Shown in pieces: positions 7,763 through 54,619 of a stretch of 64,000 nt of DNA. Where the stretch lies: assembly GCA_964016885.1 (NCBI GenBank), contig OZ024753.1, positions 248,001 through 312,000 on the forward strand, in the 5' to 3' direction. Both the position numbers and the translations under genes were made by a program. The notes under the pieces are model-generated. The model was not told the DNA's origin and ran no database searches. It saw only the letters and a list, made by a program, of their open reading frames with translations. Every line of letters begins with the position of its first letter. Positions within the stretch are counted from its first letter, which is position 1. Source of the stretch: Eledone cirrhosa. Taxonomy: Eukaryota.

Positions 7763-8324
7763 AAGTGTCTGTATTTTTTAAGAAAGTAGTGAGTGGCTGC
7801 TATTTCATCCTGGTTGAGCAATCTAATAACATTTCCATAGCTTTTATAGTCCTTTTGGGACAAGCGGAAGTTATTTAGCCCCACTCAAGTCAGCTCTGAT
7901 CGAACAAACCTATGATAAAAAAACGTTTCAAATATGATCAGTCTATCACCTTTTTCCAAGTAAAGTATATCAAGGACTTCATTATCCAATTTTATTGCGT
8001 TTTGTAAGTAGGGTATGATCTGCGTTTAACAACCATATAGAAGTGTCTTCATTGGCGTAAGTGGTTAATATTCTTTAGAACTATTAAATATTCATGTATT
8101 TTCCCATTATCTTGACAGAAAAATTGTAGTATTGGCAAAAAATTGGGTAAAACATTTACAATATCAATTGTTCAGCCCAAGGCCAGCTCTGATCCAGCAG
8201 ACCTATGATCAAAGAGGTTCTAGTCATGACCATCCCATCTTTTTGTATCACAGCAATTGTACTGTCTAACTGCATCTTCCTTTTATAAGAGAGTAGGGTG
8301 TGATTTTAAAACAATTCTCCAGTG

Positions 8325-9868: not shown

Positions 9869-10492
9869 CATATGGTTACATCTAATGTCACTAGAATATT
9901 GAGCTGGGTTAATCCATGCAATTGAATAATTAAATGATACCTATGAACATGGCCAAAACTGACCCTCATCTTAGGAAACAACACCACCCATTTTAAAGAA
10001 TTCCTATTTAAATCAAAATCTTCCAACATTTTAAATAAAAACGTTATATTAATTTTACTACTTGAAATAATTGTTTCTACTTTTGGCACAAGGCCAGCAA
10101 TTACCCAGTACATTACTGGTACTTTATTTTATCGACCCTGTAAAGATGAAAGGCAAAGTTAACCTCAATGGGATTTGAACCGTAAAGGGATGTAACTATG
10201 CTGATGTCCGACCCTTTACCGATACTGCCAATTCACTGCCCTTCTACTTGAAATAATTGTTTCTACTTTAGGCATAAGGCCAACAAATACCCAGTGTATT
10301 ACTGGTACTTTATTCTACTTGAAATAATGACTAATTTTAGTAAATCCCTAAAAGATTAGTATATTCCATTAGGGATATGATCACAAAAGGGTTAAAGTTT
10401 AGAAAGATGTTCAAGAGATGAAGTGACCCACAATAATACTATGGCTACTATCAAATTCCTATAGAGTAAAATGACAAACAGATAATGTTTAG

Positions 10493-15685: not shown

Positions 15686-15794
15686 TTAGATATTTGAAAT
15701 CTCTAATGATGCTAAATCATCCTCAAAATTAGCGCCTTCAAGGACACGACAAATTTTTCCGTCACAGTTCTGCTCTTTCCAATCGAATCTGCTC
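15686..15794 (-). CDS. ODC1: ODC terminal coding exon: (W)[35 protein letters not shown]
   Basis: Strong acceptor tttttgctttgattgtag; correct phase (TG|G = Trp); gives a normal ODC length of about 460 aa. Confidence 0.8.
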
Positions 15795-18712: not shown

Positions 18713-18765
<53 letters not shown>

Positions 18766-27045: not shown

Positions 27046-27076
<31 letters not shown>

Positions 27077-30073: not shown

Positions 30074-31564
30074 AGAGAGGAGTGATCAAGTAATAATACA
30101 AACAATCTGAAAGGAAGAAAAGATATATTGAACAAGATTGAAATGGTTGGAAAAAAAAACAACACAAGCAATAAAGAATAGAATTTATTTTTATTCCCAA
30201 ACAACACTACATTTCTATAACACTGCTAAACCCGATTTCTTGTTACGACAAGGACACACTTTAGCATTTACCAGTTGCTGACTATCTCTCAAGTAAAACC
30301 CACAATGGAGTATACTGCTTCCATATACAAGATGGTGTTGTTGCTGCACATGTATACATTCTAGACTACATCTAGGTTTAAAAAGACAAAAAAAAAAGCA
30401 ATGATTAATGCTATCCACAAGTATTGCTTTTCTTCACTTTGCTACCTCTATTGCTACTATAACCTCTGCTATTCTCAACTAGTTACCTAACTTTGCCCAT
30501 CATTCTAGCTAACTTCCCTGTTCATATTTCTCAGGACTACAGCTCTACCGGAATTCTCCTTCTTTGTAAAACATTAAACCTACAAATTTTCAAACTGAAC
30601 ATAAACTGTGCCAACCACACAATCCTCTTCAAGGTCAGAGTCCTGTCGCTGACTAACATATAAATATAAATATTTCTCTAGAGCTAAATATAACTAAGTT
30701 GGTTCTGTACAGTAATAAGTTAAGGTGCCTGACCTTTCAAGGTCAACAATTTAAACACTTTTTTATCTCTCTATATTTGATTTGCCATGCTTCAATAACT
30801 GTCCTTCCCACTCCACTGAGTTTCAAGGCAAGACTTTATTACTCATCAGTGTGGGATAGCAAAGCAACTGGTGAGCTCAATCAAGGAAATATGCTAACAG
30901 TTGGAAAATTTAGATTTAATTCCCACCCTGGCAAATATAAAAGAAACAGACATAACATATACATGTCTATACCTTGTATTTGCATAGGACAAGGGAGTGT
31001 ATGAGTCAGCATGTGTGTGTGTGTATCATCATCATGGAATATATATATACTCGAATATAAGGCAAGGAATATGTGACCAAGAAAAAAAAATCAATGTTAA
31101 AATGGGGTGGGTGTGTACTTATATTCAAGGTCAACATTTTGATGATTTTTCACCAACTTCAAATTTTATGTAAATAAGTCCTAGAATATCTAGTGATTAT
31201 TTTACAATTGAAACAATGATTTTCTACATCTAATACATCATTAGTGTTATTTATGCAGTCCCATGAAAATATTTCCAACAAATTTTTGTAATTGAACTTT
31301 TCAATACATAAATGTGTTGATTAGCAGCCTTGGTTTATAAATGGTGTTTGGATTTTTGCTAATTTTTCAGGGGTGGCTTATATTTGAGTATAAGGGACTT
31401 GTGTAGGTGTCAAGACAAAAAGCACCCAGTACTCACTATAAATGTGGTTGACGTTAGGAAGGGCATCCTGTTCTGTATGAGCAAGATATGGTCATCTGAC
31501 TTTGACTTGCCTCAAATAGTGTGGAAAATGGACGTTAAATTGTGAAGATGATGATAATGATACA

Positions 31565-31595
<31 letters not shown>

Positions 31596-33612
31596 ATCAT
31601 TGTCATGTTTACATCTGCTTTTTTTCATGCTTGCGTGAACTGGAGAAGACATTTTAAGGCAGGTTTTTAGAGCTGGATGCCTTTCCTCATATGAATCCTT
31701 ATCTTAGTTTAGGCATGGTATATATACCACTGAAGTTTTTTAAACTGCTATGCTGCAGGGAGGTATTGTTTAGGGGTGACAAACCTCTTAACTATGAGCC
31801 ATGCCTATGCATATATAGTGACATGTATATGTTAATATATAATTTATCTAAAGACACGACTATGTTCGAAGTTTCCCTTTTTTTATTAAATGTTTTCATT
31901 AGGAACTTTGTTGCTCCCAATGAGCTTTAAAGGACTCATCATGATAAAAAAATTTTAAAACTCCAATAATCTGTCTTCAATAACACGTCTAAAAAGAAAG
32001 CTGTTCTTATATATACAAACTCCAACAGCATTCTAATAAATATTGCCTGTACAGGTAATCAAAGTGTGTATATATTTTGGGGGGACACCCTGTATATGGT
32101 ATGTGTGAGAGAGAGAGAGAGATCAAAGAAAAAAAAAACAGATACAGGTTATTTTATTATTATCCTTAAATGGAGAAGTAATTTAGCCACCCTCTTTCCT
32201 CTCTCAAAAATGTACATACTGCTAGAGTTTAAATATTTAAGATGAATGTTACAGTTTTCCAACATAGTAAAATAGTCATTCACTGGTTCACTGTATATAT
32301 GGCAGCAAGTAATAAGAACCAACACTACACAAGGTGTCTTTGTTTTAAAAGCACCAATTTTTTTGATGATGTCTACACATTTCATCAATATTTTCCCTAC
32401 TGATTTGGCTGGAAGTGGCTGTGCCTATGATCTACGCAGATCTTCCAAGACTAGTGAGATTTAATGTTGTTAATGTTACAACACAATAGTTAAAAGAGGA
32501 GGAGAGACAGTACCTGAATGGTGATAGAATAAATTCTTGGAGTCAATACAGATTTGAAGCATTTAAGTCACAAAAAGTGCCCAGCCCTCATTGTAAAGTG
32601 GTCATGTAGGTGTCAACAAAAAGCACCCAGCATAAACTGTAAATGTGGTTGGCATTAGGAAGGGCATCCAGCAGTAGAAGCCAAGCTAAAATCAGTTCTG
32701 TGTGAGCGAAACACTGTCCTCCAACTTGATCTCTCACAAAGAGTCAACCCGTCCTACCATGCTAGCATGGAAAATGGATGTTAAAATATAATGATGATGA
32801 AGATAGCATCCGAAACGTTAAGACCCTCTTCCTGCTATTTCAAGCATTAAACTAATATATTCCTTTCATATACTGTACCGATTGTGTTTACCTTTTACAT
32901 ATATATATATGGATCCTAATCAATTTTGACTGCATGGACCTACTAGTTCTAAGTAAAATTTATTAGCAGCTGATTTAATCAGATATAAACAAGCCTTGCT
33001 AAGAAGGATCTAATAAGGAAACCAATACTTTAGTTGGTTTCACTCAGAACTAAACTAAAAGTAGTTTTTAAAAGAATTATGAAAATGTTTTGTTCGGAAG
33101 TTAAACTCACACTGCCTACCACTACATAACTTGCCCGGTAACAGCCTCCCATCCCAGTTTTTTTAAAAAAATCAATGAAGTATTTTTTACACTACTTGCA
33201 TCTTCCACATTGTAACAGCTGAGTAATGACATAGTATTCAATTGATTACATTAGTATTTAGTTATTTTTGACAATAGCTGACAGCCATTGTTAAACAGTA
33301 TGCCATACAACCTCAACATTATGTATACCTACTACTAATGAGTATAGAAGGTGTGCTTAGGAATGAGAAGTTACTGGGTTTGTCCCAATCCTCAATCTGC
33401 TCAGGTAAATTCTAGGTGACATTCTTAACTTGAAGGAAGTCTGGTTATATGATTAGATTAGGCAGAATATCTAACAAGATCCCTAACATCATAGACAAAC
33501 AGCAATAAAATTACACCCAAACAACTGTGCTAGCATTTCTGGGTGTAAAATTATTTTTAAGAAATAGACACTTTATCATGAAATATCATTGAACAGTGTT
33601 TCAGACACTTAA

Positions 33613-36600
33613 CCCTTTAGCATTTACATTACTCTATATATACTATTATATTTTCATGGCAAAAGCTTTACCTCACTCAATATTGAATCTATGAGATTTT
33701 GATATTATATATTTTGAGAACAATACATAAACATAAGTATGAATATCTGGTTACAACCAGTTTGAACAGAAAGAGGTAAGAGAATTCTAGCCGGTTTAAA
33801 TCTTGTGTTTCTAATAAGTAAACATATATTCAAGGCTTCAGAAGATTTGTACAAATATACACAAATACATATGTATACATACACACATCATTTTACATCC
33901 ACTTTTCCATGTTTACTCTCCTTAATGGGTTGAGGAACATCTCACTCAAATATATAAATTCCATTCTGCCCTTCTTATCGCAAAACATTTTACTAAGTGT
34001 AGTGGGTACATTTTATTGTTGTACTAACACTAGAGAGATTGTCTTGTTCTTGTCATGACTAAAGAGTTCATTCTATTTTGTTTTGGCATGGTTTCCACAG
34101 TTGGATACCTTTCTTAATGCTAACTACTTTGCAGGGTGTACTGAGTACATTTTATCATGCCAACCAGAGAGGTACTCTCTCTCTCTCTTTCATATATATA
34201 TTTTACACTCAGTCATATACATATATATACAGATGGATATACATATATACATACACTTTAAAAATAAGTGTTTTTAGATGCATAAATAAGTATTTTTAGA
34301 TGTACATAGTGCATCTTATAGTGGCACCAGCACTGAGAAGGTGTCAAGTTCTTGGCATACGTGTATAGACAAGACATATATATATATCCAACCCTAAATA
34401 TATAAACACATGGAATTATATTTGTGTGGTATGAATGCATATACACATATACACACATACTATGGAAGACTTTATAAATAGCTTCTCAGATGAATATTAG
34501 ATAATTTTTCACACATCTATAAAAACATAATGAAAAGCTACAATACACCCACCACCAAAATATTATCAATAGTCCAGTTAAAAACATTTCCTTAAGGCTT
34601 ATTATATTTAAATGAACAAATATTCAAGTTAACTTCTGCACACTATAATACAGCTTTTACAAGTGGCTTTGATGAAGAAAGAAAATATATCTCTAATACA
34701 ACCAGACCTTTGAACTGAAAATGACAAATCATCATTGCCGTTTTATGTTAGTTTTGGAATGCTTTCTACGATTAGATGCAATTTCCTACAACCAACCACT
34801 TTACACCATACGTTGAGTGCCTTTTGTGATACCAGCACTACTTTTTATTGTGTTTTATCAGGGCTACAGCCCTACCACCTGACTGAGTGCAAGTCACTAC
34901 ACCCATAAATTCAGTACACATACACCTACACATTCCATTCCAACAGCTGTAAATATCAAACTATTTAACAAAACCACAAAAATCTACTTCATGCCCTGCA
35001 ATTTTGCCTAACCTATCAAAATGAAAAACCCAACAGCTTAAATACAACTCACGGAACTGTAAACTATACAGACAATAGTATCTGTCCACTTGAAGGTAAC
35101 TGCCAAATATAAGATATACTCTACCACAGAAATTCTCAAACCTTTTGGGCAACAGCCACCCCATCTCATGGAGCCTCTGGAGGACGATAGCGCCCACTCT
35201 CAGAACTGCTGGTCTACCATTTCATAACTCAAATAGAAAAGCAGTAAGTTTCCCTAAGCTAAAGGATTCTAACAGACCTTTAATATTGTCTGGAATATTC
35301 TATCTGCTAACCCACAGACTCAATAAGACATAATATCTTTACACATCTAAAACTTATCTCTAAAATAAAATTACTTAAACACTGAACTTGTTTCTTCATG
35401 CTGACAAAACTTTCAGCACCTTGAAATATTTGAAACCTATCATTCATGCCATAAGTTCTCCCACCCTAATACCTCTATGCCATACGTTCTCCATACACTG
35501 ACAACAAGAAACCACATGTCACAACTGACTATTTCTGCTCCTTTTCATTTACACTATAACAATTTATTTTACATTAAATGTTTTGTTATATGTTAACCCT
35601 TTAGCATTCACATTACTCTTTTTTACTATTGTATTTTCACAGAAAAGGCTTTATCTCACATAATATTGAATCTATGAGATTTTGATATTTATTTTGAGAA
35701 CACTACCTTAACATCAATACGAGTGGTCAGTTACAGCCGGTTTGAACAGAAAGAGGTGAGAACAGTTTAAATGCTAAATGGTTAATTTACATACTCCAAT
35801 AATATTCATGTTTGTGAATTAGTATATTTGTATATGATATTGTGTTCATAAATATATATAGTACTGCTGCTACAATAAAATACTCCCAGTACACTGCATA
35901 GTGGTTGGCATTAGGAAGGGAATCCAGTCATAGAAACCGTGCCAAAAATTATTACAGTTCTATGTGGAAGCAATGCGTGTTTATATACATACATAAATAT
36001 TTTACTCTATAATATAATATATATATATATATTTAAACTCAGATCTCAGAGAGTAAAAAAAAATACTGCAATGCATTCTATCTGACGTTTTAATAACTGC
36101 TACTTCGACACTTTACTTACATATAAAATGTGCAACAGATGCATTTGTAAAGATAATCTGGCTTCTGAAAAGGATTGTCGAAAACAGAGAGAGGGGTAGG
36201 GAGGATTAGTAAAGACAATTGTATGAAAACTTGCTTAGAAAGCAAGTTTTCATACAATGAATGTATAATATCTTACCTGGTCGGTAGGAACACCTGCACT
36301 CAGCCGATGCTAGCTGGGATCCCACGGTGGTTCTGCGTTAAAGTTGAATTTCCGCTTGAAACGGCAGAAGCCCTCGGGATTTTCTATGTAATAAAGACCA
36401 GAACAGCCGCCCTGAAAAAATATATAAGATACATTAAAATAAGAAGTTTCAGAATTTTTCTTATATTGAATTAACTCTTTTGATACCACCTCTATCATTA
36501 GATACAAAGCTCTGCAGTTTTAAAATATTTATATTTAAGTGAAACCCTACCACAATTTTTAAGTTTAGAACATGACATAGGCTAAATAATGTCAGATATT

Positions 36601-38781
36601 TTAATAAATTCCTCCAAATTGTTCATTATTTCCAAAATTCGTTGAAACACAGAGACAGTGTATTTCATTAAAAATAGGGAAATGAATAGGTTAAGGTCAA
36701 AAAGAGAATTTATTTGTAATCTGTCAACACAAGTTTGATCATATATGCACACAAAATGCCTCTAGTCAAGATAAAAATAATTTTGAAAAAAAATATATAT
36801 ATAAAGAATGTTTCCACTAGTATAAACTAGTGTCAAAATATCAGTCATTCTTGCTGCTGTGATTAGATTTTATTTTTATATATTTCTGTTGTGTTGTTAT
36901 GACAGAATTTAGAAAAACAACCAGGGCAATATACTAAATTGTAAGCAGCTAGAAAGATATGGAAGAATTAGCCTAATGTTAAAAGGTGGAGGACAGAAAG
37001 GTTATTTAACTAGTTTGGTCAATGTTAAACACTACATGGCTTTTAAAGCAGATATAAACTATGCAAGCAGCCCTAATTACACAAGCATTATTCAGTTATT
37101 TAGATATACTTATCTCAATGTTTAATAGACATAAATGATGCATTAGATTAAACAAGACAGCAAAAGGAGCCAATGTTTTAAATATATTTACATTTGTAGC
37201 TTATAGATTCAAGTTAGCAGCATCAATTAATATCACATGAGCCAGTTGATTATGCAGTTTATTTTTGTTAGGTAAAGTACAAATTAATTAATAGATATTA
37301 ATTAACAGTATGGTTTGGTATAAGTTTCATTGAAGAGACACAGAATAGCATATTGAAATACTAGGTTTTAAAGATTCAACTTGGACAGAAGATATGTAGT
37401 GTACTACACAGTAAATACTAGTTTTTGGGGCCCCAAAATACTATCTGTAAAATATTTACAAGATAATATCAGTTATATTAACCCATAACCATTTAGATTA
37501 CTCTATATTTACTATTATATTTTTACAGTAAAGGCTTTAACTTACATAATTATCGCATATAATATCGAATCTATGAGATTTTGATATTTATTTTGAGAAC
37601 AATACCTTAACATCAGCATGAGTGGTCAATTACAGCCAGCTTGAACAGAAAGAGGTGAGGGAATTCTGGCCGGATATGGCTAGTTTAAATGCTAAAGGGT
37701 TAAAGAGCTGTATACTGATATATTCATCAATAGCATGTGTATTCTCTGCTAAAGGTACCATGTGGTGGTACAATCCCAACAACAATAATAGTTTCTACTT
37801 TTGGTACAAGGCCAGCAATTAACCAGAGCATTACTGGTACTTTATTTAATCGACCCTGTAAGGATGAAAGGCAAAGTTAACCGCGGCAGGGTTTGAACTC
37901 AGAATGGAAAGGGCCGTAACTCTATGCGTCAAAGCATGACGTCCGACCCTCTACCGATACTGCCAATCCCAACAATAATGAAGACTGATCACAAATGCAT
38001 GAAACCATAAGGGTACATCTATGTAGTAGCTCATACAAGAAATAGCAGCCAGAACAGCATAGAAAAGGCCAGAATGCCTTACAATGAGGAGTTTGTTCCA
38101 TCAAGGTTGATTTGAGATTAAACAATATACACATGTACCAATTAAACCAAACATTTTCTACTCATAAAGCAAATAGAAAGGAGTCGAACCAGTTCAGTTT
38201 AACCTTTTAGCATTTACATCACTATATTTACTATTGTATTTTCACAGCAAATACTTTACCTCAAATTTATTTTGAGAACAATACCTTAACTTAAGTATGC
38301 GCAGCCAGTTATGGCCAATTTGAACAAAAAGAGGTGAGATAATTCTGGCTGGATATGGCCAGTTTAAATGCTAAAGGGTTAAACAACTGATAAATATGTA
38401 ACTAAATGTTACAAGTTTCTAATTAAAATCTTTAATTGGCCCCTTATTTTCTATGGTAATGTGGGTGAAATAGCAATGCTGTTGTGGTTGCAAAAAAATA
38501 CATTGAATACAATGTAAGCTTTATAAAATGCTAAAGGTTAGGTTAGATGTAGGGTTTTAAAATAGACCCTCACACACAAACTTTAGCATTTACATTACTC
38601 TATATTTACTACTGTATTTTCACAGAAAAGGCTTTATCTCATAATATTGAATCTACGAGATTTTGATATTTATTTTGAGAAGAATACCTTAACATCAGTA
38701 TGAATGGCCAGTTACAGCCGGTTTTAAAAGAAAAAGGTGAGAGAATTCTGGCTTGATATGGCCAGTTTCAATGCTAAAAGG
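33613..38781. mobile_element. Five piggyBac MITE copies in the opposite orientation (33613-33801, 35597-35781, 37482-37699, 38203-38378, 38581-38781)
   Basis: Each starts with a variant of ccctttagcatttacattactc and most end ...tttaaatgctaaagggttaa. Confidence 0.75.
36310..36411 (-). CDS. AUU-initiated uORF (uCC), part 2: GGCSGLYYIENPEGFCRFKRKFNFNAEPPWDPS* (in leader exon 36277-36411)
   Basis: ttttttcag acceptor, CAG|gtaaga donor at 36277; C-terminus FNAEPPW(D/E)PS-stop matches the AZIN1/ODC uCC motif. Confidence 0.88.
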   Translation of the reverse strand, partial: GGCSGLYYIENPEGFCRFKRKFNFNAEPPWDPS

Positions 38782-40700
38782 TTAAAATATTTGTTCCACA
38801 AAGTTAAGGAGGTAACCACAAGATTTACAACTGGAAAGCAAGCAAATACAATGGAGATGCAAGCAATATTTTAATATCACTGAAGCATATGATTTATTTT
38901 TAACTTGGTGTGACTGAGCAGTTCTGTGATCGTGTCGAAGGACAATAGTAAAAGAAAGAGAATGTGTGTATGTAATACAAATAACCAATGAGAATCCTCA
39001 GAGTCAATTTATAAATAAAGAGAATATACATCAGTTGATGTTAATGCAGCAAAAAAAAAAAACTGATAAGGATTATTTCTAATTAAACTACAAATTTACT
39101 GCTTTATTAAACTATTTGTTAGAGAGAAAAGCTGTTTAATTTTTCAATTGTAGTTTTAAATACATGAAAAATTGTCATACAGTTGCTACATCAAGCCCAG
39201 AGTCATTAGTAAACTCATCCTTAGAGTAAAAGAAGTTGAATTGCTTCAGCTTAGCTCAGTTCAGCTGTTTGAGCATACCTATGACAAAAGGTATTGCACC
39301 TGTAACCATTCAGTGTATAAAAAAAAACCATTGTGAACTGTTCTTCCAGTTTTAGGATTTGAAAGAAATTTCTTAGTTTTTACTAGCAGATCAAGTGAAC
39401 ACATGGTTGCTACACCAAGTTGTTAAGGCCTACGTCAGCTCTCATTGAGCAGGCCTATGGTGAAAGGTGATCCAACCACAATCATTCTATCACCTAAGTA
39501 ATCAATGCAAACAGGACCACATCATCTGATGTGCACCGAGTTTTAAGGATGACAGACAGTAATGTGAACATTTGACAGCTACTTCTAGCAGATCAAGAGA
39601 TCATATCAGTCCCCTAGCTAACTAGACCGGAGTAAGATCACATTCTAATAGTATCATCTAGTAGTTTTATGTCACATTCCAACTGTACATGCTGCCCACG
39701 TTTAACAGCTTAATAAAATACATCATCATTTGCACAAAAACAATAGTTGATATATTTCATATAGTAAGCATGAAGAATCCCAATAGAAATATTTATGTGA
39801 TGAAGAAAAGACTTCATCATACTTGCCAATACTAATTATTTTAGAGCATTGGTTGCTAAACTGATTTTGTTGCAGAACCCTGAACCCTAACACGATTTTC
39901 CAAAAATCAAAGAACTCATACCTATATTTTATGGACAATCACAATCACTTTAAATTTAATGTAGCATTACAAGAAACCAAAAATGTTTTAGAAGAATTTA
40001 TTCATATTACATATATAAAAAATTATTGAATTTTATTAAGACATAACCCAATTTGAGAAAGAATAAAGTTCAGAATAGATATTAACCAGTCAGATTATTA
40101 CAAAAACCACATTACAGGAATAGAAACAATAATTTGTATTCATTAAGAATGTTTTGAAAATTTGGTGTTTAAAAAAATATTTCTTATAATGTATGTAAAA
40201 AGATGATTGATTAAGAAAAATAAAAGGTAGATAACATACAATAGGATTCTATTGTAAGTTATATATCTTTAATTAATAAACTACTAGCACCATGGTGAAC
40301 ACCATAGAGTAAGCTCCCAGCAAACTGAAACCATAGATAATTCACTTCACTTACACTACTAAGCTTTTTGGAGAGGACCTTTGTGCCTAGTCAAAAAGTA
40401 AAGCAATATTTCATCACATCTTGCGTTAGCTGCTGCTGCAGAAGTTCCATCTTTTCCTTCGTCTTTAAGCCCCAACTACCACCTGGTGTCTGGTGATGTA
40501 TACAGAGCTTTGGCTGTGCGTAAATGGCAAGTACAGAAGCTGCAGAGAGTATGGAAAATATAAACAAGTAGAGATGTGGAATTTACCAAATCTATCATCT
40601 TTCAAGCAAAAGTAAAATTACAAGTATATATTTCATTTCCCCTACAACTTGCAAATGAATCACACTAGGCTTGTCTGCTAAAGTGATTCATAAGCACTGC

Positions 40701-40746
<46 letters not shown>

Positions 40747-42539
40747 TATATATATAATATATATATATATATATACCCACACAGCATAGCACATTCTATC
40801 TCCTCAACAACTGGTTATGTTGTTCTCCGATAAAGATTAAAAAACAATGAGACTTTTAAATATAAAGTAAATGTGCTTCTTTGATAATACATACATAATT
40901 GAAATCATAGCCTACAATTTGTTTAATAGATATTATAATTGTGACTGAATACCATTCTAAAATAACACTAACAGGCTTATTTTAATAATCTCGTAGTTTC
41001 ACTTGGTGCATACATAAGTACTAAAGAGTTCTTTCTGATTGCACTAAAGTTTTGTAAAGTGTAAACCTTGGATCCCTCTCACCCACCAACTTAAAACTGC
41101 TACATTTATACTACAATGTAACCACAAGGAATCATCATCATCATCATAGTGGCTAACGTCCACTTTCCACGCTAGCATGGGTTAGACAATATAAAATAAA
41201 TCCTTAAAATGGAATAACAAGAATTAATTTATATTGTTACAAAATGAAAGGCAACAAGCACTTTTATATTCTAGAATTAGAATTAATTAGATTAATTTAG
41301 AGAACTTAACAGTAATTAGTCATATAAAATTACTAATTATAACATCTGTAGGTGGTGGAACCACTGCACCTACTTCCTCTTACTGAACAAGCTGTTGCTG
41401 TAGAAAAATTACAGTAACAAGTGGTCCTGCTCAATAATTGATAGAGTTCAGTATTATATATATTGGTAGGGTTAACAAAATGGCAGTGAAAGTAGGGACC
41501 TAAATGATACCAAGAGCACTGACATAAGCAGTGCACTCAATGAAACATGAAAAACCTACAAATTATTAATGGTTGTTGTTTAGTCCCAGGTCATCTGTGA
41601 ACCAGCAAATCATTGATCAAAGGCATCTAAGCCATAACCATTGTTTGTTTTTTTAAAGATTATATTACCTAATGTACCTTTTCCTTTTTAAAGTTGCAAA
41701 GACTAAGCCAGTTGGGTAACAATGCAGAGAAACCCAGTTGTTGGTTGTGAAAATGTGACGACCTGGTAAAGAACGGGTTGAGGGGCCAAAATAAAGTTGT
41801 ACCTAACATATTTGACCCAAGCTCCTGCTCTCTTTTATCAGTTTAGGCCTATTTCCTCACCCAAGTTCTTATTTTCTCTCTCTCCTTTCACAAGACCTGT
41901 TATACCTCTAATGTTAATATGATAAAAACATGTGAAAATGCCATGAACCTGAGGTAGACGTAGTTAAGGTGTTTCCAAACATACATTTGCAGAAAAAGCA
42001 AAACAAAAAAAAAAAAAAACCAGAGAGTTCATGATAGAAACACTTTATTATCATTTACAAAACTATGGTAGATACTAGAATGGAATTTTAAACAAGACGA
42101 CTACATAACATGAAAGCACAATGAAGAAATTTATAAAATGAAGAAAAAAAAAAATTATCATTACAATAACAGCTTATATTAATGTGGACATAATTATTTT
42201 TAGGTGTCAGCAAGCAATTTTCATCAAATTATCAATGATTTTCAATATATATGGTTGGCTTTGCTTAACTGCTGCAGTGCAGAGCTATTATTTTATCAAC
42301 AGAGACAAAAATAAAGTAAATACTGCTAGATGTTCAATAAGATGCTGTCTATTTTTGCAAACACTCAAATAATTAGATGAAGTTATTGGAGAAAAGCCTC
42401 ATTTGAAATAAGCATTCCTGTGATCTAGCACCGAAGGCAAACGTACATACATACATACAAAAAACACAGAGGCCCATAAGAAAATCCTAGACACAAGTCA
42501 ACCAACCTGTAGTCATTAAGCTTTATTCATAACAAAATG

Positions 42540-43520
42540 AAGCCCATTTCGAAAGCAAATGGCAACGCAAGTGGAGCTGAATGCTGTAATGTCAGGGAAG
42601 AGACCAGGAAATATCATTCCGAACAGTAGCCTGAAGTATTTTCATGTTCCACATACGATCAGAAGTGGCATTATATGCCGTGGTGAAGCTATAGATGGGA
42701 GTGGAGTACTCACGCATAGAAATACACGTTCGCAAAAAACTATTACGCACATACGCCAACACTAACAATATTTCTTCAGAAATGGAAACCCCTTTTAAGA
42801 AACTATTTCCAAGACAGTCTGCCTATCATGATTATCTAAGCCGAGAATCTACGTTGAAGCTAACATTGCAAGGCAGACAAACTAAACTTTAGACAATTTC
42901 ACAACGTGTGCCAACGAATAAGGATATATTGATGTATTAAAAGAAAATCAATATGGTCACCTTGACACACAACCAAGGTATAACGTTAATCAGATTGACA
43001 CAGACATTACACCAACAACTAGACACAAACACATAACTTAATTGGATTGTATAGGCTATATTCATGCAGACTGCACACGTACACATGCCATGCGGTATAT
43101 ATAAACCAATGACCCAACAAAACAGAAACAAGGTTTGAAACATAACCAATAAATATAGAAACCCGGGAAAACTTCCCGGTGTTATCAATGAATTAATATT
43201 AGTACTAAGCAAACGTAGTTTGTAAAGAGCTTAACTTTTACAGCATTCGATAATCACAAACAAGGTCTCGATTTTCATGAATTTTAACCTTGAAAACACT
43301 AGCCCGACACTGACCTCCAAGACAATTGTATAAAAGTTTAAAATGAAAGTACCAACCAACTGGGATACTAACAGATGGCTATTCGACGTCGAAACATGAA
43401 AATAAAAGGATATTTTTTTATAAGATGTCCACACAACTATAATGTTTAATATAATTATTGCAGAAATAAACCAACAGAAACAAAGAAGAGATAGCAGAAA
43501 CTGAGGTACGATAGTGGGGC
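42540..43520 (+). mobile_element. Possible heavily decayed Ty3/gypsy pol remnant (RNase H/integrase)
   Basis: Only fragmentary resemblances (GVEYSR; PDTLTS.DN-like across frameshifts); many stops. Confidence 0.3.
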
Positions 43521-44129
43521 TCAACAGATCATTGTTAGATTTAACAGTATAGTGAAGACCTCTTTCCCATCGGGTTAATATTTCACATAGCTAATTGAAA
43601 TTACGTGTGTAACAGACTAGTAAGTTGGTTTATTTTAGTACTGGAAGGAAATATATAAGTTCTTTTCGAAATGGCCATATTTTAAACATGATTTTATCAC
43701 ACCGTCAAACAGGCAAGGACAAACAACATCTAGTGTAGAGTTACTTCTATGTGGTTTGTTCATGGCAGCTAAATCTTCAACGAGATAATGTAGTCCTGAC
43801 CACATTCAACTATAAACAAAGACGGAATTATCACGGCATGAACGCCTTTAATCATAAGAATGGTCAACTAAGACAGACATTGACAACGAAAGGTCAATAG
43901 CGAAGAATGCAGCTTAAAAACGAAGCATGGCAATCAAAAATCGACAGAATGAAGAAAACTGAGAAGCTGAAGTAAAAAGGCTTATTTTATTACAAAAAAA
44001 TACGAGAGTTTACCCAGTTACACTCACACACATACATCGCTCTATATGTTTAAAGTAGCAGCCAACCTCACTTCAGTTTAAAATGAGTGTGAGCATTATT
44101 AATCCTTGAAGTTTGAAGACTGCCACCTA

Positions 44130-44465
44130 CACCTGCCCTAATATGTCACCTGTCTCTTGGTCCCGGTCGACAGGATGGAGAAGACATTGTCCCGGGGGAC
44201 GGCGAGAGAGACGCGCTGGAACAACCAACTCCAATCCGATAACAGGGTGTGATCTGAGGGTCAAGAACGCTGGAAGTCTCCACTGTTACAGACTCAACCA
44301 CAAACCTATCAGATAGCGGCCGATATTTGGACAGTTTGCCTTCTTGGGCAAGGCGGGTAGCGAAGCCTGGGTTGGTAGCCGATGTCGCATCTCCGATGAG
44401 GGGCCTACTCTCGCGGAACGAGAAGATTGTCATGCCGTCCGGCCTTTTGTCGTCCCTTTGAGCCA
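44130..44465 (-). mobile_element. Decayed CRE-like endonuclease fragment in ODC intron 1
   Basis: ORF DDKRPDGMTIFSFR...KYRPLSDRFVVESVTVETSSVL. Confidence 0.75.
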
Positions 44466-45933
44466 TGCTTTACTCAAATCCAAATCACAACCTTCTTCGC
44501 TCAGTTATCTCTCGGAGAAGAGACATCAGACACGCCTTCCAGAGGGCCCTATCAGAAGCAACCATCTCCAACCAAGCTCATGAATGTTATCCAACTATCT
44601 TGCTGATAGTTTTTTCATGAATCTCCTGTCGGTTGGCTTTGTTCGTAAAATCTGTCCAATGACAGTCTAACCACATGTCTGTAGTACCGGAACTCTTATG
44701 ATCTCTCCATCTCAAAAGATGGTCATTGTTGGAATGTTTTTTTAAAATAAGTCTACTCGACCAAAACTGAACGATCTATATATATATATATATATATATA
44801 AGGGCATCCAGCCGTAGAAACCAAGCCAGAAACAGTTCTGCATGTGCAAGACACGGTCACCGGACCCAACTTGCCTCAATCGACACAACCCATCTAACCC
44901 ATGCTAGCGTGGAAAAAGGGACGTTAAACGGTGATAATGACACACACACACACCAACAACAGAAAGTTAACACGACCGACACTCAATATAAGCAGGTGGT
45001 AGTACTAGTGATTGCCACGTGTGGTATCAGAGATATAAATATGTTAGTAAAAAAAACAGCCACACTACTAATTCATGAGTGACAGAATTAGAACAGTGAC
45101 GGTATAAAACAAAAAAAAAACAAAAATATTCGTGAAATTGTAGATATATCGGCGATTCCAATACGAGAGGACACCGACCCGCTAGGAATAAAAATCTGAA
45201 AAATATTAGGTGGGATGGTCACGACCGGATTCATAACATGATTCAATCAGAGGCAAAATAACCCGGACGTTGGGTCGTATTCAGAATTTATATATATATA
45301 TATATATCACCGGGATTAAATAACAAACAACAAATTATTTACCAATATGTCCCAATATCTCAATTCCAAAAATATAGTCTATACAGGGTGTCCTCAAAAA
45401 ATGTATACACACTTTGATTACCTGTACAGTCAATATTTATTAAAATGCTATTGAAGTGTGTATACAGTTTTGGGAGGTTGAGATTCGACCACGAGATATA
45501 ATTTGAGTAGCTAAATAGGTGTTATCATGGGTCAAGCCCATATGTAAAAAAAAAAAACAACAACAACAAAAAACCCTGTCTGCATGCGGTTACTCGACAT
45601 GTTTAAATTGTAACCAAATTCTCCCGCAAATCACACCCCACGGTCTTCAGTAATGAACACAAGATTAGATAAGACAGGATGATCACGGCTGGAACGTTTT
45701 TGATCATAGCTCTGCTCGATCAAAGCTGGTCAGAGGATAAACAATAAGTCAAACAAAAGATGTAACTATATAGACTGGTCAACCGCTTATTGTTTATCTC
45801 CTGGTCAATACTATAGCAAACTTGTTAATTATAATTTAAAGATTTCTTTTCATCACTATAGACAAAATTTTGCAGAATGAACTGATTGCTGCCCATGGAA
45901 ATACTGCAAACCAAGCAGTGTCTACACGTGAAC

Positions 45934-45977
<44 letters not shown>

Positions 45978-48900
45978 TGAAGCTAATACGTATATTATAA
46001 CAAGAGTGACCCCTGTGAATACAAGCGAGCTTCAAAATCAAAAGGGCAGAAAACGCAGACAAGAGAATAACATTCCTATAAGGCAGAGAGATGTGAATTA
46101 ATTATAAGACTACGCAATAGGATAAAGCTAATTATCTTAATAATGATAACAGGAGTAAAATCTTTATGAAAATCAACCGAGTATTTATATTTTGTACACA
46201 GTATACGGTATACCATACATATAAATAATATATGTACTATTTACAAAAAAACAACAACATACAATATATATCTAACCAGCGGTATAGGCTCTACGTAGTC
46301 ACTCGACTTGCTAGATGAAGCAGCTACATCGCCCTCAAATTACACCCCACCGTCTTAAAGGGTACACTGAACAATTTTGTCCATGATTTACAAAATGGAC
46401 AACACTGGAACTCACTTGACCCTGGGTCTGTTGGTTTATATTGACCAGAGGCTAAAATACGTATATATTAATTATTTAGGTCCAAGAAAGCTTGAGTGAG
46501 TAGATCTATAATCAAAGATGTTCCTACCATGACTATTTTATTCAGACGCATTAAGTGTTACATTGTCCTACATATCCCCACTTTTTAAAATAGTTTAACG
46601 TTCTCCTTCGCAGGCAATCGGAGAGATCAACAAATCCAAGTTGATGGCTGCACGGGGTTCACGTTCTGATCTGGATTGGACTGCGATTTACTGCGAAGCC
46701 TGAATCTGAACGAGGACACTATGGGCGACAGGCGAGTCGATCAGACCCGAGTAGCGGTGACACAGATCAGCCAATTCCCCACCAAAAAATAGAGACCATT
46801 ATAGTAGCGGTAGAAGAGGCAAGGGTGCAATTTGGGGGTAATGTAGCTACTATTTCAAGCAAGTCGAGCGACCACGGAGAGGCTTCCATGTTGGGTCAAT
46901 GATTATATTTATCCATAATCATGTCCACTCCAACACAAGTTTGCACATGGCCTTCATATAGCCCAAGCAAAGTTATGAAAAGACTTCGACACTCTCAGTC
47001 AGTCCAGATTAATACCTGTAAAATGAGATAAAGCTATACTACACATCACTTTAGTATTAAAAACGATAAAAAAAAAACAGCAACCTTAAATCAATAATTC
47101 AGTCCCAACTAGCCTGGGAGCTGCTAAGTAATAATACAAACATCACTGCCAACTGCAATATTCTAACATCCACGATGAAATGATTTATCAGGACTCACGC
47201 TATATAGTATTAAGTCTATGGAATCTATTTACACCAGACAGACATTGGCTGTTGAGTAACAGGCAATGTCTGTGGAGTAACAGACTTTCACAGGTTGTAA
47301 GATGTTGGTTGTCAAGGAAACAGTAAAATTGCAGTTAACGGAGGTGTATTCCTCAGACGTGCTTACAAATTCTATCTTACTATACTACAGGCCATAGTAA
47401 GTAAGGTGTACACAGTACACATTGCTGTAAGCTGAAATAAGGATTACTGCTTCATCAACAACTACTAATTAGACATGGAGAAGAGAAAGATAGGCAACTT
47501 ATACAGTGACGATTCAGATTACTACTGCAGGCGATGGACTAATTAAATATTGTAAAATAATCCTGATATTTATTATTGAGGGAGCTTTCTACAAACGGTA
47601 CAAGTGGAATTATTTACCCCTAAGCTGAGCCTTTCACAGCAGGTTTGTCAGAGTTGGGGAGAGCTATTCAATTGATAAAAACATGTAGTAGGGGAAAGCT
47701 TTAATACCCACATAAGGGCACCCACCGATTATAAGCTATTCAGTGAGATGAAGGGAAGGGCGATTCGTACAAGATAAATTAGGACAAGAAGGCAAACAGA
47801 CCAGTTGGATCTCATTCATAACTTCTAACAATAGACAGTAAGAAAAAAAAAATGTTTCTTCATTGGGTAGCTGAAGTGGTACTGAAGAGGGGGACTAGAT
47901 TTTGAAGTAGAGATGGTAAAGAGACATTAGTACAAGGCTGTAAAAGGGGACGTATATACTAAACTAATTTACACACAGTAGGAAACTTAACATTTTCAAG
48001 TGTTTAATACTTCAGAGATTTATTCATCCACCTGCCTCCTCCTTTCAGCCCAAATATAGTTTGCTGATATAGATACACACATATATCTAACAAAATGGTG
48101 TAAAAAAGAATGAAATAAAGCTGGTTTAATCCGTGCAAAATGGATACCACCATAAAGGAATGTCTGCAGAGAGATGAGGGACAGTTAGCAGTGATTCAAA
48201 GAGAAAAACTCACAGTAAATGAGTAATTAAGATAATCATAACGTGGTAGATAGGCATTAGTAATACAATATAAATAATTGTAGTTGATTAGCGTATATTT
48301 CAAACTATCATCCCCCGCAACATTTATTGTTGGAATATCTGATGATGACAGCAAATAAAATTAGCTATTTATTGAGGCCTTTCCCTAATCAACGAACAGA
48401 TAATAACAATGATATATAGGTTGACGTAAATAGAATTCGCTATCCGAATCACAGATTAGGAAAATTGAAAACGACATGTGATGAAATAATGGCGACTGGT
48501 CCATGCGTAGTTAGTGCAAACAACATAAGACGGAGTGGAAAATGGAAATTTCGGAGAGATTGGAATACATCAACAATTCTATTTATATACTACAAGCGTT
48601 AAAAGAGCCAACCAACAACTGTTATATTAAAATGTATTATATATATATAGAGAGAGATTAATATGAAAGGCGTTCTAATGTGTTAAAATGTATGATGAGG
48701 ATGGAGGTGAAACTGAATCATGTAACCGACCACCATCTCTATAACAACAACTACTACTAACGTTACTATAATCATTCAGCCATTAGAACAAAAACGAGTC
48801 CAAATATGACAAACGGCCTTTAAAAATACTGTCATGTTATAAAAACCTTGTTCAGGAAGTATATTTTATTTGCTTCTTCATCCACTGCTGCCATAACCAA

Positions 48901-50028
48901 AGTATCAATAGTATGTTGTTAAACTAAAATTCCACTGAGAAACGAAACATTACTAGAGGCTAAAGTATAACCAAACAGCCTTTAAAAATACAGATGGTGA
49001 CAGTCTGAAAGACAAGAGTGGCAATGGCACTAACAGCATCTTTAGTTAGGTATAGTAGTAGCAGTATAGTTAGTGGTAATAAGAACATATGAACATAGTA
49101 GTAAATGTCTATATATAGCCAAACAGTGGGTAACACCATGGTGAGAGGTAGATAGACACACAGACAGACTAGACTAGACTAGACAATCTGACAATACACC
49201 ATTGACAAAAAGAGTGTGCGAGTGTGGCAAAGATAGACATTAAAAGATAATGATGGTACTAATGATTTCTAGATAATATAAAATGCGTTCTGCACAAATA
49301 CACACACATATATATATATATAAATTTATATTTAGATGCGTTTTCTAAATGAGTGTGTATATCTTGTCTCCTCTCTTCTTGCAGAAGAGAGAGAAAAAAA
49401 CTAAGATTAGGCACTCATAAAAATAAGAACCAGCAATGAAAATCAATAATACTAAATGGCTACGTTGACAGGGAGAGAGAAGGCAGCTTTTAGCAATTAC
49501 AATCTGACCGATCACACATACACAAATATAGATCTTACATACATGTCTGTCTCACAGATACGGATAAATTGTTTTTCTCGTCAGTGACAAAAATATTACT
49601 GCAAACAAAAAACTAAAACGAACATATATCATCTAATGACCTGTTGAAGATATTGTATTTCATTATTTAGCTAGAAAACCCCCCAGCTATATATATATAT
49701 ATATATATCGCACGTGGGGTATGGTATATCATATGTAATTATATATTATATACATACTTCGCATATGTGGGCATATCATGTTTATATATATAAACTTAAT
49801 TGATGTATTTTATACACGCGACCGTTATATTACATTGTAATCTATATCTATATATATATATGTGTGTATATATAGACACTAACGTATGCACGTAAATCTC
49901 AAATTACATGTTTAATCCAAAACAAGATTGCTGTTTATGGATCAATTCAATGGAATACGTATTTGTCTATAAGGTATTTTACATTAGGGAGTCACAAAAT
50001 TAATTCATTACGTAGAGGTCGAACTGTA

Positions 50029-50085
<57 letters not shown>

Positions 50086-50645
50086 ATATATATATATATA
50101 TATAAATGATGATGATATATATAGTGTGTGTGTGTGTGTGCGAGCGAGATAGGACAGTAAAATACTGGGCAATTGATAGAAATTTTCAATATTACTGCAG
50201 TCTACGTGTATGCATGTGCGTAGTTGTTTAGCCACAGGTCAGTCTTGATCGAGCTAACGTGTGATCAAAGGCGTTTCAGCCGTGACCATCTCGGTCGTTT
50301 GTATATTTACAACTAAGCTGCTCAATGTATCTTCTTTTTTTTTTCTTTCAAAAACGGAATGGTGTGCTGATAGAGATTTGGCTGCTATTTCTAGTAAATC
50401 AAGCGACTACGCAGAGGCTACTACCACGTATGTGGTCAGTAGTAACACAATTAAGACTTAATAAATTAGTATTTCGTTGGTTACACGAGACTTTGTGTGT
50501 CCAGCAGGAGATAAGACAATATAGATTATATAATGCCACCGGATGTGTGGTCAGCAACAGCACAAATTAGCTATTCCAAGTGTACTACGTGTATATGTTG
50601 TACAGCTAAGTGTGTGTGTGTATGTGTATATATATACACACACAT

Positions 50646-50745
50646 ACAAAGTGTCCCCCATAAATGTATACACACTTCAACAGCATTCTAATAAACATTG
50701 CCTGTACAGGTAACCAAAGTGTGTATACATTTTGGGGGACACCTT
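50646..50745. mobile_element. Short Tc1/mariner-type MITE; copies at about 32005-32093 and 45381-45475
   Basis: TA-flanked cagggtgtcccc-like TIRs and a shared core attacctgtacaggcaatatttattagaatgctgttg. Confidence 0.55.
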
Positions 50746-51444
50746 ATATATATATATAGATACATATATATATATATGGTAATGTGAGGTATATATGTAT
50801 GTACGTATATAATATATCAATCAGGCTAATAATCAATAAGCAAGACGTTGAATGATGATTTTTTAGTCTGATAAAATACTGTACAAGTAGCAGATATTTA
50901 GGTTTGAGTAATGGGAGTTATGTAATGGTAAATAGAGGATTGTTTAAAAAAAAATCTGAGATATATACTACAACAACTGAGTATATAAACAGGAATGAGT
51001 CTCTACGATTAGAAATAGCAGCCAAATATTCCAAAATCACCTTTCCATCTTTATATAAAAAACAAAGGACATATTGGAACTTGAACATGTAGACTAGACA
51101 GATGTAAAAAAAAAAGACGGGTTGATCACACCTTTGGCCTTGCTAAATCAGGGTTGATGATAGGAAGCTAAACAACAGATGGCCGAATATAACAATAACT
51201 ATGTAAGACTTTGAACCCCAGGCTGCAGACAATATCAACAATCATACATAACAGACAGCTTCAATATAGGTTTCATTAACATGTAGACACACACTCATTT
51301 AGAGAAAGATATATAAAAAAAAAAAATGAGTAAGAAAAGTGACTAAGCTTTATGTTAGCAAGAACCGTTAAGTGAAGTAACGGTTTAATTAATATACACA
51401 GATATTTAAATAAAATATATTATTTACTGATCATATATATTTAC

Positions 51445-51492
51445 CTGAACAGAAGCTCCACAACCGTTCTCCTTACTGTTTTTCCCCGGAAT
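51445..51492 (-). CDS. AUU-initiated uORF (uCC), part 1: ATT CCG GGG AAA ... GTT CAG = IPGKNSKENGCGASVQ
   Basis: gcaagATTccg start context, 16 open codons, phase-0 donor CAG|gtaaat; joins in frame to the PPW exon. Confidence 0.75.
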
Positions 51493-51508
51493 CTTGCTGA
51501 TTGTGGGG

Positions 51509-51526
51509 CTAACACATGTAAAGCAT
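51509..51526 (-). CDS. Minimal AUG uORF MLYMC* in leader exon 1
   Basis: ATG CTT TAC ATG TGT TAG, ending 16 nt before the uCC AUU; real only if the TSS at about 51622 is correct. Confidence 0.45.
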   Translation of the reverse strand: MLYMC

Positions 51527-51617
51527 AATAGAGCCAAAGGAAAAAACCGACACACCGGCGTTAGAAAGTTTAGTGTAATTGAATGACTTCCTAAGCAGCT
51601 TTCAGTGTGACACCGGT

Positions 51618-51655
51618 GAAATAGACAGCTTTCTACTAATGGCGAACTTTATATA
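51618..51655 (-). promoter_or_regulatory. Putative ODC core promoter: TATA box plus initiator (TSS about 51622)
   Basis: TATATAAAG at 51655-51647; YYANWYY-type CTATTTC with its A 31 nt downstream of TATAAA; locally CpG-containing; immediately upstream of the uCC exon. Confidence 0.6.
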
Positions 51656-53089
51656 CAACACCGCGTATGGATACACACACACGCTTACGAAATAGTCCAG
51701 CGGAAGAGAAAGTATAAAAGCTAAAAAATGTTGATAAAAGTTTTTAATTGGCAAATATAATAAGGAAAATTAAAATTTATGAGTCAATGTTCTAAGAGAC
51801 TATGAGTGTGATTATGAATATAATAGGCTTACATTCTCTCTCATTCACTCTTTATTTATCCCCTCCTACTCTTATCTCATTTTCTTACTTTATCTAGTCC
51901 TCTCTCTCTCCCTCTTCTTGTCTCTCTCTTTCGCACACACTTTTTTTTTTTTTAATTTACTTGAATTAAAACTTACTCATTAATAAAACTCTGATGGTCC
52001 TCTCACTTTCACAATATTTACCGCCCCCACCAATTCTGTCCCTCTCGATCTCAGCTGTGTGTACTCTCTCCTTATCTTATTTACAACCACCCTACCACAA
52101 CTCTTATTTATCGGTTACTTTATTCCACTACATTATCAGTCTCTCTCTCTCTCATTACCTTTCTCTCCTTTATTCATACATATTTAAAAAAAAAAAACAA
52201 CATATACTTGCTTTCACCCCGCCTCTCTCTCAGAGAGAGAGAATCATAATGGGACAAGAACAAAGTATAAATACTAATAGCAGTCCGTAGATAGTGAACA
52301 GACCTGTCAACTCTCCCCGTCTGACGGAGAGATTTACAATAGAGTTTAGGGTGGGCGAGAGATGTCTTCTCTTGTGAAAATGCGTATAGCTTTCATTATG
52401 TAAAATCTCCCTATTTTGCCTCATTTCCTTTTTTCATGGTACTCCCCGTTTAGTTTTTTTTTAGAGGTTGGCAGGTCTGACAGACAGATAGACACATAGG
52501 TAGGGGAAACAATCATAATTTAGTGGATATGTGTTTGATATTGATCTCAGAAAATATGGAAGAAAATTATTGTAATTGATTTTGTGGTGTCTTGTTTATT
52601 CCCTTAAATTATATGCGTAGGTAATTGAACAAGACACATTAAATTACGAATTTCTATTTCGACATAATGAAGTACAATAAACTGTTGAACGGTAGAACTG
52701 TTGAACTGAAGCGAGGGTGGAACCATTGTGCTTGGATGTGCTTAAACACAGGGCCCCGTTGACCAGGGAAGAGGGACATCTTCCTGCCAAAATAATTTGT
52801 TACGAATGAATTTTTCAAATGTAAGGGGGCTTCATAACTCAACTAGTACAGGACCTCATTTGTCTTAAATCCGGCAATATAACAATAATAACACTGAATG
52901 TAATTCCGTAGTGATAGAAAGAATTGTGTACTCTTCAAACCGTCAGAGATTTCAAAATGTACTTCGAACCTATTGAACAAAATTATGTACCCCTGTTTAA
53001 TATATTGGCAACAAAACACGAGCGCACTTAAAACACGTGATTGTGTTATGATTGGCTGTCCTTAAATAATTAAACAATTACACAGCACT

Positions 53090-53710: not shown

Positions 53711-54619
53711 ATTTAAATTATTGTAAAATGAACTACAACGATGGTCGGAGTGGCAAGAGGGAGGTCATGGAAAATCGAGGTATCAACCATCTTTACATGG
53801 AATGTTGTAATCAAGGAATTAAGTCAAATATTTTAATTTTGAGTAACTTCCTTCGTATTCCCCTCGCGTACGTTCCGTCATTTAGTTGGGTGTAAAACAA
53901 TTGATTAAGTAACCGATGATCCATCATTAGGGTGGATTAATCATTAAACGAAATAACTACACACTTAGAGCTTAGAGGGAAGAGGGATGGATCCTATTTT
54001 ATTCAAATTAAATGTATTTGTCATACAAAAACAACAAAAAACTTGTAGACTTTAAACTTGTTGATGGGACACCAAAATTTTTTAAGCGGTTAGAACGTCA
54101 AAAGTACTTAATTTCGGCCTGTCTGTCAAAAATGTGCCATGGCGAACTCATTAAAGATAATTGTTTCTATTTTAGGCACAAGGCCAGCAATTACCCAGTA
54201 CATTACTGGTACTTTGTTTTATCGACACCGTAAGGATGAAAGGCAAAGTTAACCTCGGCAGGATTTGAACTCAGATCGTAAAGGGACGTAACTATGATAA
54301 TGATTTCTGATTTAGGCACATGGTTAAGAATTTTGATTAAATCCACCCCAGTGCATTACTGGTACTTTATTTTATCGAACCCGTAAGGATGAAATGCAAA
54401 GTTAACCTCGGCTCGCATAATCACCGTTTCAATACTCGAGACATTGACTTGCTCGTGTGCGCCAACATTTAACTGCAATTGGATAGGCATATTCTTCTCA
54501 CATACCTTTGTGTATTTCCAGCTTAAGGATATTTCACCTATAGCACTGAGTTCGATGCAATTAGTCATACACTGAGTTAGATATAATCAGCCATAGCACT
54601 GAGTTCAATATGCCTCGAG

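Follow-up and report, generated by a model that had tools for sequence, protein, structure and literature searches.

The 5' leader of the ornithine decarboxylase (ODC) gene in the window, the whole 64,000-nt stretch of DNA analysed, contained an upstream frame of 49 codons, for which splicing from two exons and initiation at AUU are predicted. Comparison with relatives strongly supported the frame as a new instance of the animal uCC class, the upstream conserved coding regions of ODC homologues. By analogy with mammalian AZIN1, this conserved uORF probably represses ODC synthesis when polyamines are high. The features of the locus, from upstream to downstream, were as follows.

51648 to 51655, minus strand: TATA-like box, putative ODC promoter, the sole match to TATA[AT]A[AT] in 51500-51700
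51509 to 51526, minus strand: short AUG uORF of 5 codons, A at -3, second in-frame ATG at 51517, read from the sequence
51445 to 51492, minus strand: first part of the uCC, 16 codons from the AUU start up to a phase-0 GT donor after 51445, read from the sequence
36412 to 51444, minus strand: intron 1, 15,033 nt, GT-AG, phase 0, within the uCC, predicted from the sequence
36277 to 36411, minus strand: leader exon 2, 135 nt, with the 33 final uCC codons, TAG at 36312-36310 and 33 nt more
36310 to 36330, minus strand: Pro-Pro-Trp (PPW, 36330-36322) and the Pro-Ser-stop end, a predicted stall motif with a role assigned from AZIN1
30107 to 36276, minus strand: intron 2, 6,170 nt, donor after 36277, next exon from 30106
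15686 to 30073, minus strand: ODC coding region in 10 exons, giving 460 aa when the micro-exon is skipped, with 30106-29951 as first coding exon
18813 to 18840, minus strand: ODC micro-exon, 28 nt as assembled versus 9 codons in relatives

The joined frame on the minus strand consisted of 16 codons from exon 1 and 33 from exon 2 by predicted splicing, opened with ATT-CCG at 51492 with A at -3, and contained no ATG. The start, the donor at 51445, the intron length, the acceptor before 36411 and the TAG were re-read and matched the initial annotation, and the peptide reported there was the translation of the joined frame. The peptide ended in Pro-Pro-Trp-Asp-Pro-Ser-stop, with PPW at codons 44-46 and 129 nt past AUU in the spliced leader. 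The distance from the uCC stop to the ODC ATG at 30073 was 33+33 nt, giving the 66 nt previously claimed for the spliced leader. Leader exon 2 had a single match in a genome-wide search, no second uCC or retrocopy was found in genome searches that scored best candidates only, and the peptide matched no Pfam family. The earlier observation of 8 CpGs in the 135-nt exon was accurate (5.9 per 100 nt versus 1.8 in ODC exons; at least 8 CpGs in 1.8% of 2467 windows of that length), but its description of the surroundings as CpG-poor was too broad, in that intron 1 was not uniformly so (1.7 per 100 nt). The coding part of exon 2 held 6 CpGs, where the amino acids by themselves predict 3.3 (P=0.08); CpG retention was therefore dropped as support for the frame, being weak evidence.

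The gene downstream encoded an octopod ODC, identical to an Octopus ODC at 430 of 460 residues. All 12 of the ODC motifs checked were intact in the 460-aa model (including the PLP-lysine, the GGG loop, EPGR and the catalytic cysteine) and agreed with mouse and human ODC in alignments of P0001. Catalytic roles are assigned to these motif residues. A close relative of the main ORF scored 460 bits against ODC versus 365 bits against AZIN1, and the micro-exon was alternatively spliced in Octopus annotations. By its sequence, the regulated gene thus looks like an active enzyme and not an antizyme inhibitor. Neither a second ODC copy nor an antizyme-inhibitor paralogue was found; the genome did contain an antizyme gene.

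Relatives of the uCC were collected by a pattern for its last nine codons, without ODC being part of the query. The scan returned 26 loci, 18 of which had ODC downstream on the same strand. One further locus, L010, was uCC-like and offered only 120 nt of downstream sequence, and seven chance matches with neither ODC nor uCC likeness (L004, L005, L006, L012, L014, L022, and L026) were dropped. The near-duplicates L021 and L023 were removed before counting, the AUU-anchored alignment was made without L009 and L015 (no AUU), and the ungapped codon tests without L016 and L027 (indels); the compared leaders include no cephalopod relative. An AUU stood 46-49 codons before the stop in 12 of 14 non-redundant transcript-like contigs, missing in L009 and L015, and codon 2 was CCG in 11 of 13 sequences, the window included. 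Independently found relatives, mostly with ODC downstream and with a conserved AUU, bore out the proposal that the frame is an animal uCC lying ahead of ODC.

With the searched motif left out, identity at the three codon positions was 0.64/0.73/0.40 among 11 sequences, and pairwise amino-acid identity was 0.55 in frame versus 0.28 and 0.32 off frame. Stops interrupted none of the 11 sequences in frame, versus 7 and 11 of the 11 in the other two frames. Codons 23-30 before the stop were hardly conserved (0.32/0.39/0.30). Judged by these patterns, the uCC is conserved across animals as a peptide, mainly in its C-terminal part. Conservation for RNA structure was ruled out as the explanation, since third codon positions vary; no Rfam match was present in 29000-64000, and the 3' uCC folded no better than shuffles (z -0.9). 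The gap from uCC stop to ODC start was 63-165 nt in the 14 relatives. In all three genomic relatives (L010, L011, and L020) a phase-0 intron lay at the matching place inside the uCC, differing in length alone, and the intron 2 donor lay 33-35 nt past the stop. The two-exon uCC layout was common to L010 and L011, where the intron measured 860 and 922 nt. The split by an intron, presented earlier as a novelty, is therefore shared, and the supposedly novel Gly/Cys-rich N-half corresponds to a freely varying spacer in 12 of 12 aligned relatives.

The published description of the uCC class covers six or more animal phyla (PMC2811004). As in that description, the octopod frame lay in the 5' leader of an ODC homologue, began at AUU with a purine at -3 (a non-AUG start in good context), ended before the main AUG, carried two adjacent prolines near its end and Pro-Ser-stop at its end, was conserved toward the C-terminus at the peptide level, and was accompanied by a conventional AUG uORF. 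No difference in kind from the class was found; its 15-kb intron was far longer than those of L010 and L011. The mammalian AZIN1 uCC likewise has an AUU start and PPW near its end, upstream of a polyamine-raising protein (PMC9082881, PMC11550727), with PPW at codons 47-49 in mouse (10.1101/710061) versus 44-46 here. Unlike AZIN1, the octopod main ORF carries the catalytic motifs of ODC, which would make the enzyme itself the target. According to a 2009 review, AZIN1 alone retains the non-AUG uCC in vertebrates, mammalian ODC having lost it (PMC2811004). The fungal HOL1 uORF (PMC11550727) and the short uORF of plant AdoMetDC (PMC2811004) share the Pro-Ser-stop end and a polyamine-pathway context, but differ in host gene and have a termination-type stall. 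Among the papers listed by our literature searches, none concerned a cephalopod ODC uORF, and the Ivanov 2008/2018 supplements may list mollusc or cephalopod uCCs.

The initial annotation had described the uCC in this leader correctly, but overlooked the 5-codon uORF with its two in-frame ATGs (51526 and 51517), the stop of which ended 16 nt before AUU. Seven of the 14 relatives had a comparable short AUG uORF (expected, 1.7; the lineages are not independent) and the other 7 had none. Relative to AUU, its start fell at -34 to -50 and its stop at -9 to -23. The TATA-like box stood ~160 nt upstream of AUU, and we infer a transcription start near 51625. A sigma-70 promoter scan was disregarded as not applicable to an animal gene. 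A hairpin of -20.3 kcal/mol was predicted 23 nt past the A of AUU, spanning the exon junction (p=0.0045 from 4000 dinucleotide shuffles, without correction for the four regions tried at the outset; p=0.04 versus synonymous recoding; rank 10 among 363 donors). It was not shared by the 14 relatives, none of which fell below z -1.7 in that window, and we regard the predicted junction-spanning hairpin as a weak lead only.

The proposed mechanism follows AZIN1, to which the direct experiments in the cited papers are confined (PMC2811004, PMC9082881, PMC11550727). When polyamines are low, most scanning ribosomes would bypass the weak AUU and go on to the ODC AUG. When polyamines are high and eIF5A is inhibited, the few ribosomes on the uORF would stall at PPW, and the queue would extend back over 129 nt to AUU, raising initiation there and blocking access to ODC. 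With a target that looks like an active enzyme, and with an antizyme-inhibitor paralogue looked for and not found, the circuit would amount to direct feedback by the end product, running in parallel to antizyme. We further infer that the 5-codon AUG uORF may capture some ribosomes and free them too near AUU to restart there, a step that would determine both the basal leak and the switch threshold.

Several observations were counted against the PPW-stall explanation. Mouse liver disome data placed the strongest uCC pause at codons 14-15, not at PPW (10.1101/710061). A polyamine-transport mutant of C. elegans gave inconsistent odc-1 changes (PMC13578949). Many ribosomes may be diverted by the upstream AUG uORF, which is itself missing from half of the 14 relatives, and AUU is missing in two of the 14 (L009 and L015). 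Tentatively, and with rather low confidence, the invertebrate ODC switch could be a two-uORF module, in which the short AUG uORF controls how the PPW sensor is loaded and fixes its polyamine threshold; in the octopod, a hairpin formed only after intron-1 splicing might adjust AUU use further and so link sensor strength to splicing. The position of the short AUG uORF would in that case be kept at one to one-and-a-half ribosome lengths 5' of AUU.

The decisive pause of the same polyamine sensor might instead be termination at Pro-Ser-stop, as in HOL1, which would be compatible with a PPW pause. AGC was the last codon in 18 of 18 uCC sequences examined and in 0 of 7 chance matches, even though the pattern permitted any W-S-N codon. 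This invariance can follow from ancestry, because the AGY and TCN codons of serine are not interconverted by one change; the complete absence of AGT is left unexplained by ancestry. Polyamine-sensitive release at a PS-stop motif has been described (PMC11550727), and the PS end is common to the uCC and the plant AdoMetDC uORF (PMC2811004), but the AZIN1 stall was mapped to PPW (PMC9082881, PMC11550727), and we consider a decisive termination pause improbable. Still less probably, the frame, though translated and conserved, works as a constitutive brake or gets mostly bypassed via the AUG uORF, with antizyme doing the polyamine control. The AUG uORF at 51526, with A at -3 and its end 16 nt before AUU, would fit such bypass, the predicted hairpin 23 nt past the A of AUU could raise AUU use regardless of polyamines, and the genome has an antizyme gene. 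However, the near-cognate start, the spacing and the PPW-x-PS end are all as in the polyamine-responsive AZIN1, conventional uORFs also occur beside the vertebrate AZIN1 uCC (PMC2811004), and the hairpin is not common to the 14 relatives.

The least probable alternative, and a very improbable one, accepts the PPW exon as real but pairs it with a different first exon or with one outside the window, or takes the join as artefactual. The N-half is poorly conserved, the upstream scan covered 27.6 kb only, and the junction is predicted. Against this, 51492 was the sole one of 25 ATTCC sites in the 27.6 kb upstream to be open to a phase-0 donor after 10-22 codons (control scans gave 3 sites of this kind on the plus strand, 64 kb, and 1 on the downstream minus strand, 36 kb). 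Scored against a profile of the relatives, the AUU exon ranked first of 123 candidate first halves with 69.6 bits, 3 bits above the runner-up (66.6), versus 64.0 for the unspliced frame; the AUU context by itself ranked only 7th among 27,574 upstream sites. The joined length of 49 codons aligned gap-free to L013 and L017, the two-exon layout was that of L010 and L011, and the TATA-like box lay 160 nt upstream of AUU.

The octopod ODC uCC is another case of a known switch and reveals no new mechanism. The recurring short AUG uORF bears on a question open in the 2009 review, namely the role of conventional uORFs beside the uCC (PMC2811004). If the mechanism of a PPW stall with ribosome queuing is true, octopod ODC would be under direct translational polyamine feedback through an element invisible to protein annotation. 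Together, these results support the view that a non-AUG uCC was present on the ancestral animal ODC, with its two leader introns already there, and was kept on AZIN1 in mammals.

The uCC (upstream conserved coding region) in the leader of the ornithine decarboxylase (ODC) gene was read as an AUU-initiated frame divided between two exons. The initial annotation's coordinates for the AUU, donor, intron, acceptor, TAG, next exon and ODC ATG were all verified in the sequence, as was the claim that the upstream open reading frame (uORF) lacks AUG, the joined 49-codon frame having zero ATG. The splice junctions of the leader are predicted. The features, all on the minus strand, were as follows.

51655, minus: TATA-like box, upstream of the 5-codon uORF
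51526 and 51517, minus: two in-frame ATGs opening a uORF of 5 codons, its end 16 nt short of the AUU
51492, minus: AUU start of the uCC, then 16 codons to a phase-0 donor, read in sequence
15,033 nt, ending at an acceptor before 36411, minus: uCC intron, predicted from splice sites
51469-51447 with 36410-36401, minus: predicted hairpin across the splice junction, just 3' of the AUU, formed only after splicing
From 36411, minus: second part of the uCC, 33 codons, then TAG at 36312-36310, read in sequence
36277 and 30106, minus: donor after 36277 ending leader exon 2, and beginning of the next exon, both predicted splice sites
30073, minus: main ATG of ODC, 66 nt past the uCC stop in the spliced leader
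18813-18840, minus: ODC micro-exon, 28 nt as assembled including a seven-T run, 9 codons in relatives

The 27.6 kb upstream contained 25 ATTCC sites, of which 51492 alone began a frame that stayed open for 10-22 codons up to a phase-0 donor; control strands gave 3 and 1 qualifying sites. When a profile built solely from 12 relatives was applied to 123 open-frame donor candidates, the AUU exon at 51492 ranked first (69.6 bits; runner-up 66.6; unspliced 64.0). Its start context by itself ranked 7 of 27,574, and no other of the top 8 had a usable donor. A wrong exon join is very improbable. Three genomic relatives had a phase-0 acceptor 32-36 codons ahead of the stop, with a donor following the stop by 33-35 nt, and an AUU-CCG exon was also present upstream in two of them (18 codons in L010, 15 in L011). 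From these matching sites both leader introns are judged to be old; the split, initially taken as novel, is unusual here in length alone. The eight CpGs pointed out in the second leader exon exist, but are mostly explained by its amino acids (P=0.08).

An exact degenerate pattern of the last nine uCC codons, scanned in metagenome sequence, matched 26 loci. A same-strand ODC lay downstream in 18, seven were apparent chance matches, and L010 resembled a uCC but offered just 120 nt of downstream sequence to judge by. Sixteen transcript-like loci had unbroken ODC frames, 14 after removal of two near-duplicates, and in 12 of these 14 an AUU lay in frame 46-49 codons ahead of the stop, with CCG next in most. 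The ODCs of the closest uCC look-alikes (L008, L013, L016) clustered with Aplysia (support 97/94). Outside the searched motif, 11 sequences showed identities of 0.64/0.73/0.40 at the three codon positions, and pairwise amino-acid identity was 0.55 in frame versus 0.28 and 0.32 off frame; stops occurred in 0/11 sequences in frame and in 7/11 and 11/11 in the other two frames. The uCC is conserved as a peptide. AGC was its last codon in 18/18 sequences. The N-half varied freely among relatives, so the Gly/Cys-rich part, proposed as novel, is nothing special.

Several loci departed from this layout. The C-terminal half occurred without AUU-CCG at L009:3-149, where an AUG in frame with the stop and 46 codons ahead of it, near the contig end, suggests a possible AUG-initiated variant, and without a clear AUU start at L015:192-344. 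At L019:27-1728 an AUU-start uCC preceded a highly divergent ODC homologue with a long branch and 4/6 checked motifs missing, possibly an independently derived antizyme-inhibitor-like gene. One clade (L002, L018, L024) had out-of-frame AUGs within the uCC, whose short frames closed before or just past the uCC stop.

With the last-but-one exon as query, ODC proteins were recovered, the top match being Callistoctopus ODC (93%). Tblastn and splice-site reading gave ten coding exons, spanning 30073 to 15686, whose 460-residue product had every one of 12 checked motifs, was identical to an Octopus ODC isoform at 430/460 residues and clustered with octopods (support 100/100). The score of its close relative P0001 was 460 bits when compared with mouse and human ODC, and 365 when compared with AZIN1. 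Genome searches found at least this ODC locus, the only one among the best candidates scored. Given these scores, intact motifs and the lone locus, the regulated gene is likely the enzyme itself. One antizyme gene was found among the best candidates scored (L030:1180-1701, G000 contig C28), with a TCC-TGA at 1299, close to where the conserved frame starts, a putative +1 frameshift site of the kind expected.

With the micro-exon included, the reading frame changes and the protein ends at residue 362. In Octopus annotations some isoforms contain it and others lack it (469/460, 466/457 aa), so the form that skips it is intact here; the 28-nt length may reflect either an assembly error in the homopolymer or a long isoform that has been lost. 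Context was weak at the first ODC ATG, which had T at -3 and C at +4; nine codons downstream, a further in-frame ATG (30046, minus) had A at -3. Both methionines were kept in 8/9 octopod cluster members, the annotation of the ninth beginning at a later start, so the protein may have two N-terminal forms. Elsewhere in the window, decayed retroelement- or transposon-like frames were seen by eye at 20655-21470 and 54587-55874 (plus) and 978-1577, 9348-9875 and 23499-24017 (minus), some within ODC introns; six scanned pieces, 9348-9875 lying outside the scan, had no Pfam match at E 0.01. An 85-codon open frame at 7627-7884 (minus) resembled a protein exon, and its Pfam scan gave no match.

The 5-codon uORF had been overlooked initially. 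In 7/14 relatives a short AUG uORF stopped 5-25 nt ahead of the AUU (1.7 expected from dinucleotide shuffles, P ~0.0006), a P value too favourable because the range was picked post hoc, several leaders were shortened and the seven cases represent about three lineages. PMC2811004 describes conventional uORFs at conserved positions beside the vertebrate uCC, their effect not known there. A conserved two-uORF arrangement may tune the polyamine sensor. The junction hairpin is a weak lead: its core pairs had a predicted probability of ~0.92, with modest statistics, it was not shared by the distant relatives searched, and it begins 23 nt past the A of the AUU, somewhat farther than the 14-16 nt optimum cited in PMC9082881.

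The uCC probably represses ODC through polyamines, eIF5A and a ribosome queue at Pro-Pro-Trp (PPW), the predicted stall motif near its end; of this mechanism we observed the anatomy, the conservation and the host gene. By extension from AZIN1, as described in PMC9082881, PMC11550727 and PMC2811004, scanning ribosomes would leak past the AUU when polyamines are low. High polyamines would impair eIF5A function and stall ribosomes at PPW, and the resulting queue would increase AUU initiation and repress ODC. As a counterpoint to the PPW stall, the mouse liver disome peak reported in 10.1101/710061 lies at uCC codons 14-15 and not at PPW; that the decisive event is a termination stall at Pro-Ser-stop is unlikely. 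The polyamine feedback has its own counterpoint in C. elegans, where the odc-1 response was inconsistent in one mutant (PMC13578949), and a uCC acting as a polyamine-independent brake is less likely still.

The proposal of a uCC in this leader is well supported by relatives with ODC downstream, a retained AUU and a conserved peptide. A literature search showed no mollusc or cephalopod example among the papers listed, and one could already be in print. The frame showed every sequence-level feature that PMC2811004 gives for the animal uCC group. Together, our results support well a real uCC that is ordinary for its class and that, by analogy, would work as that of AZIN1 does.
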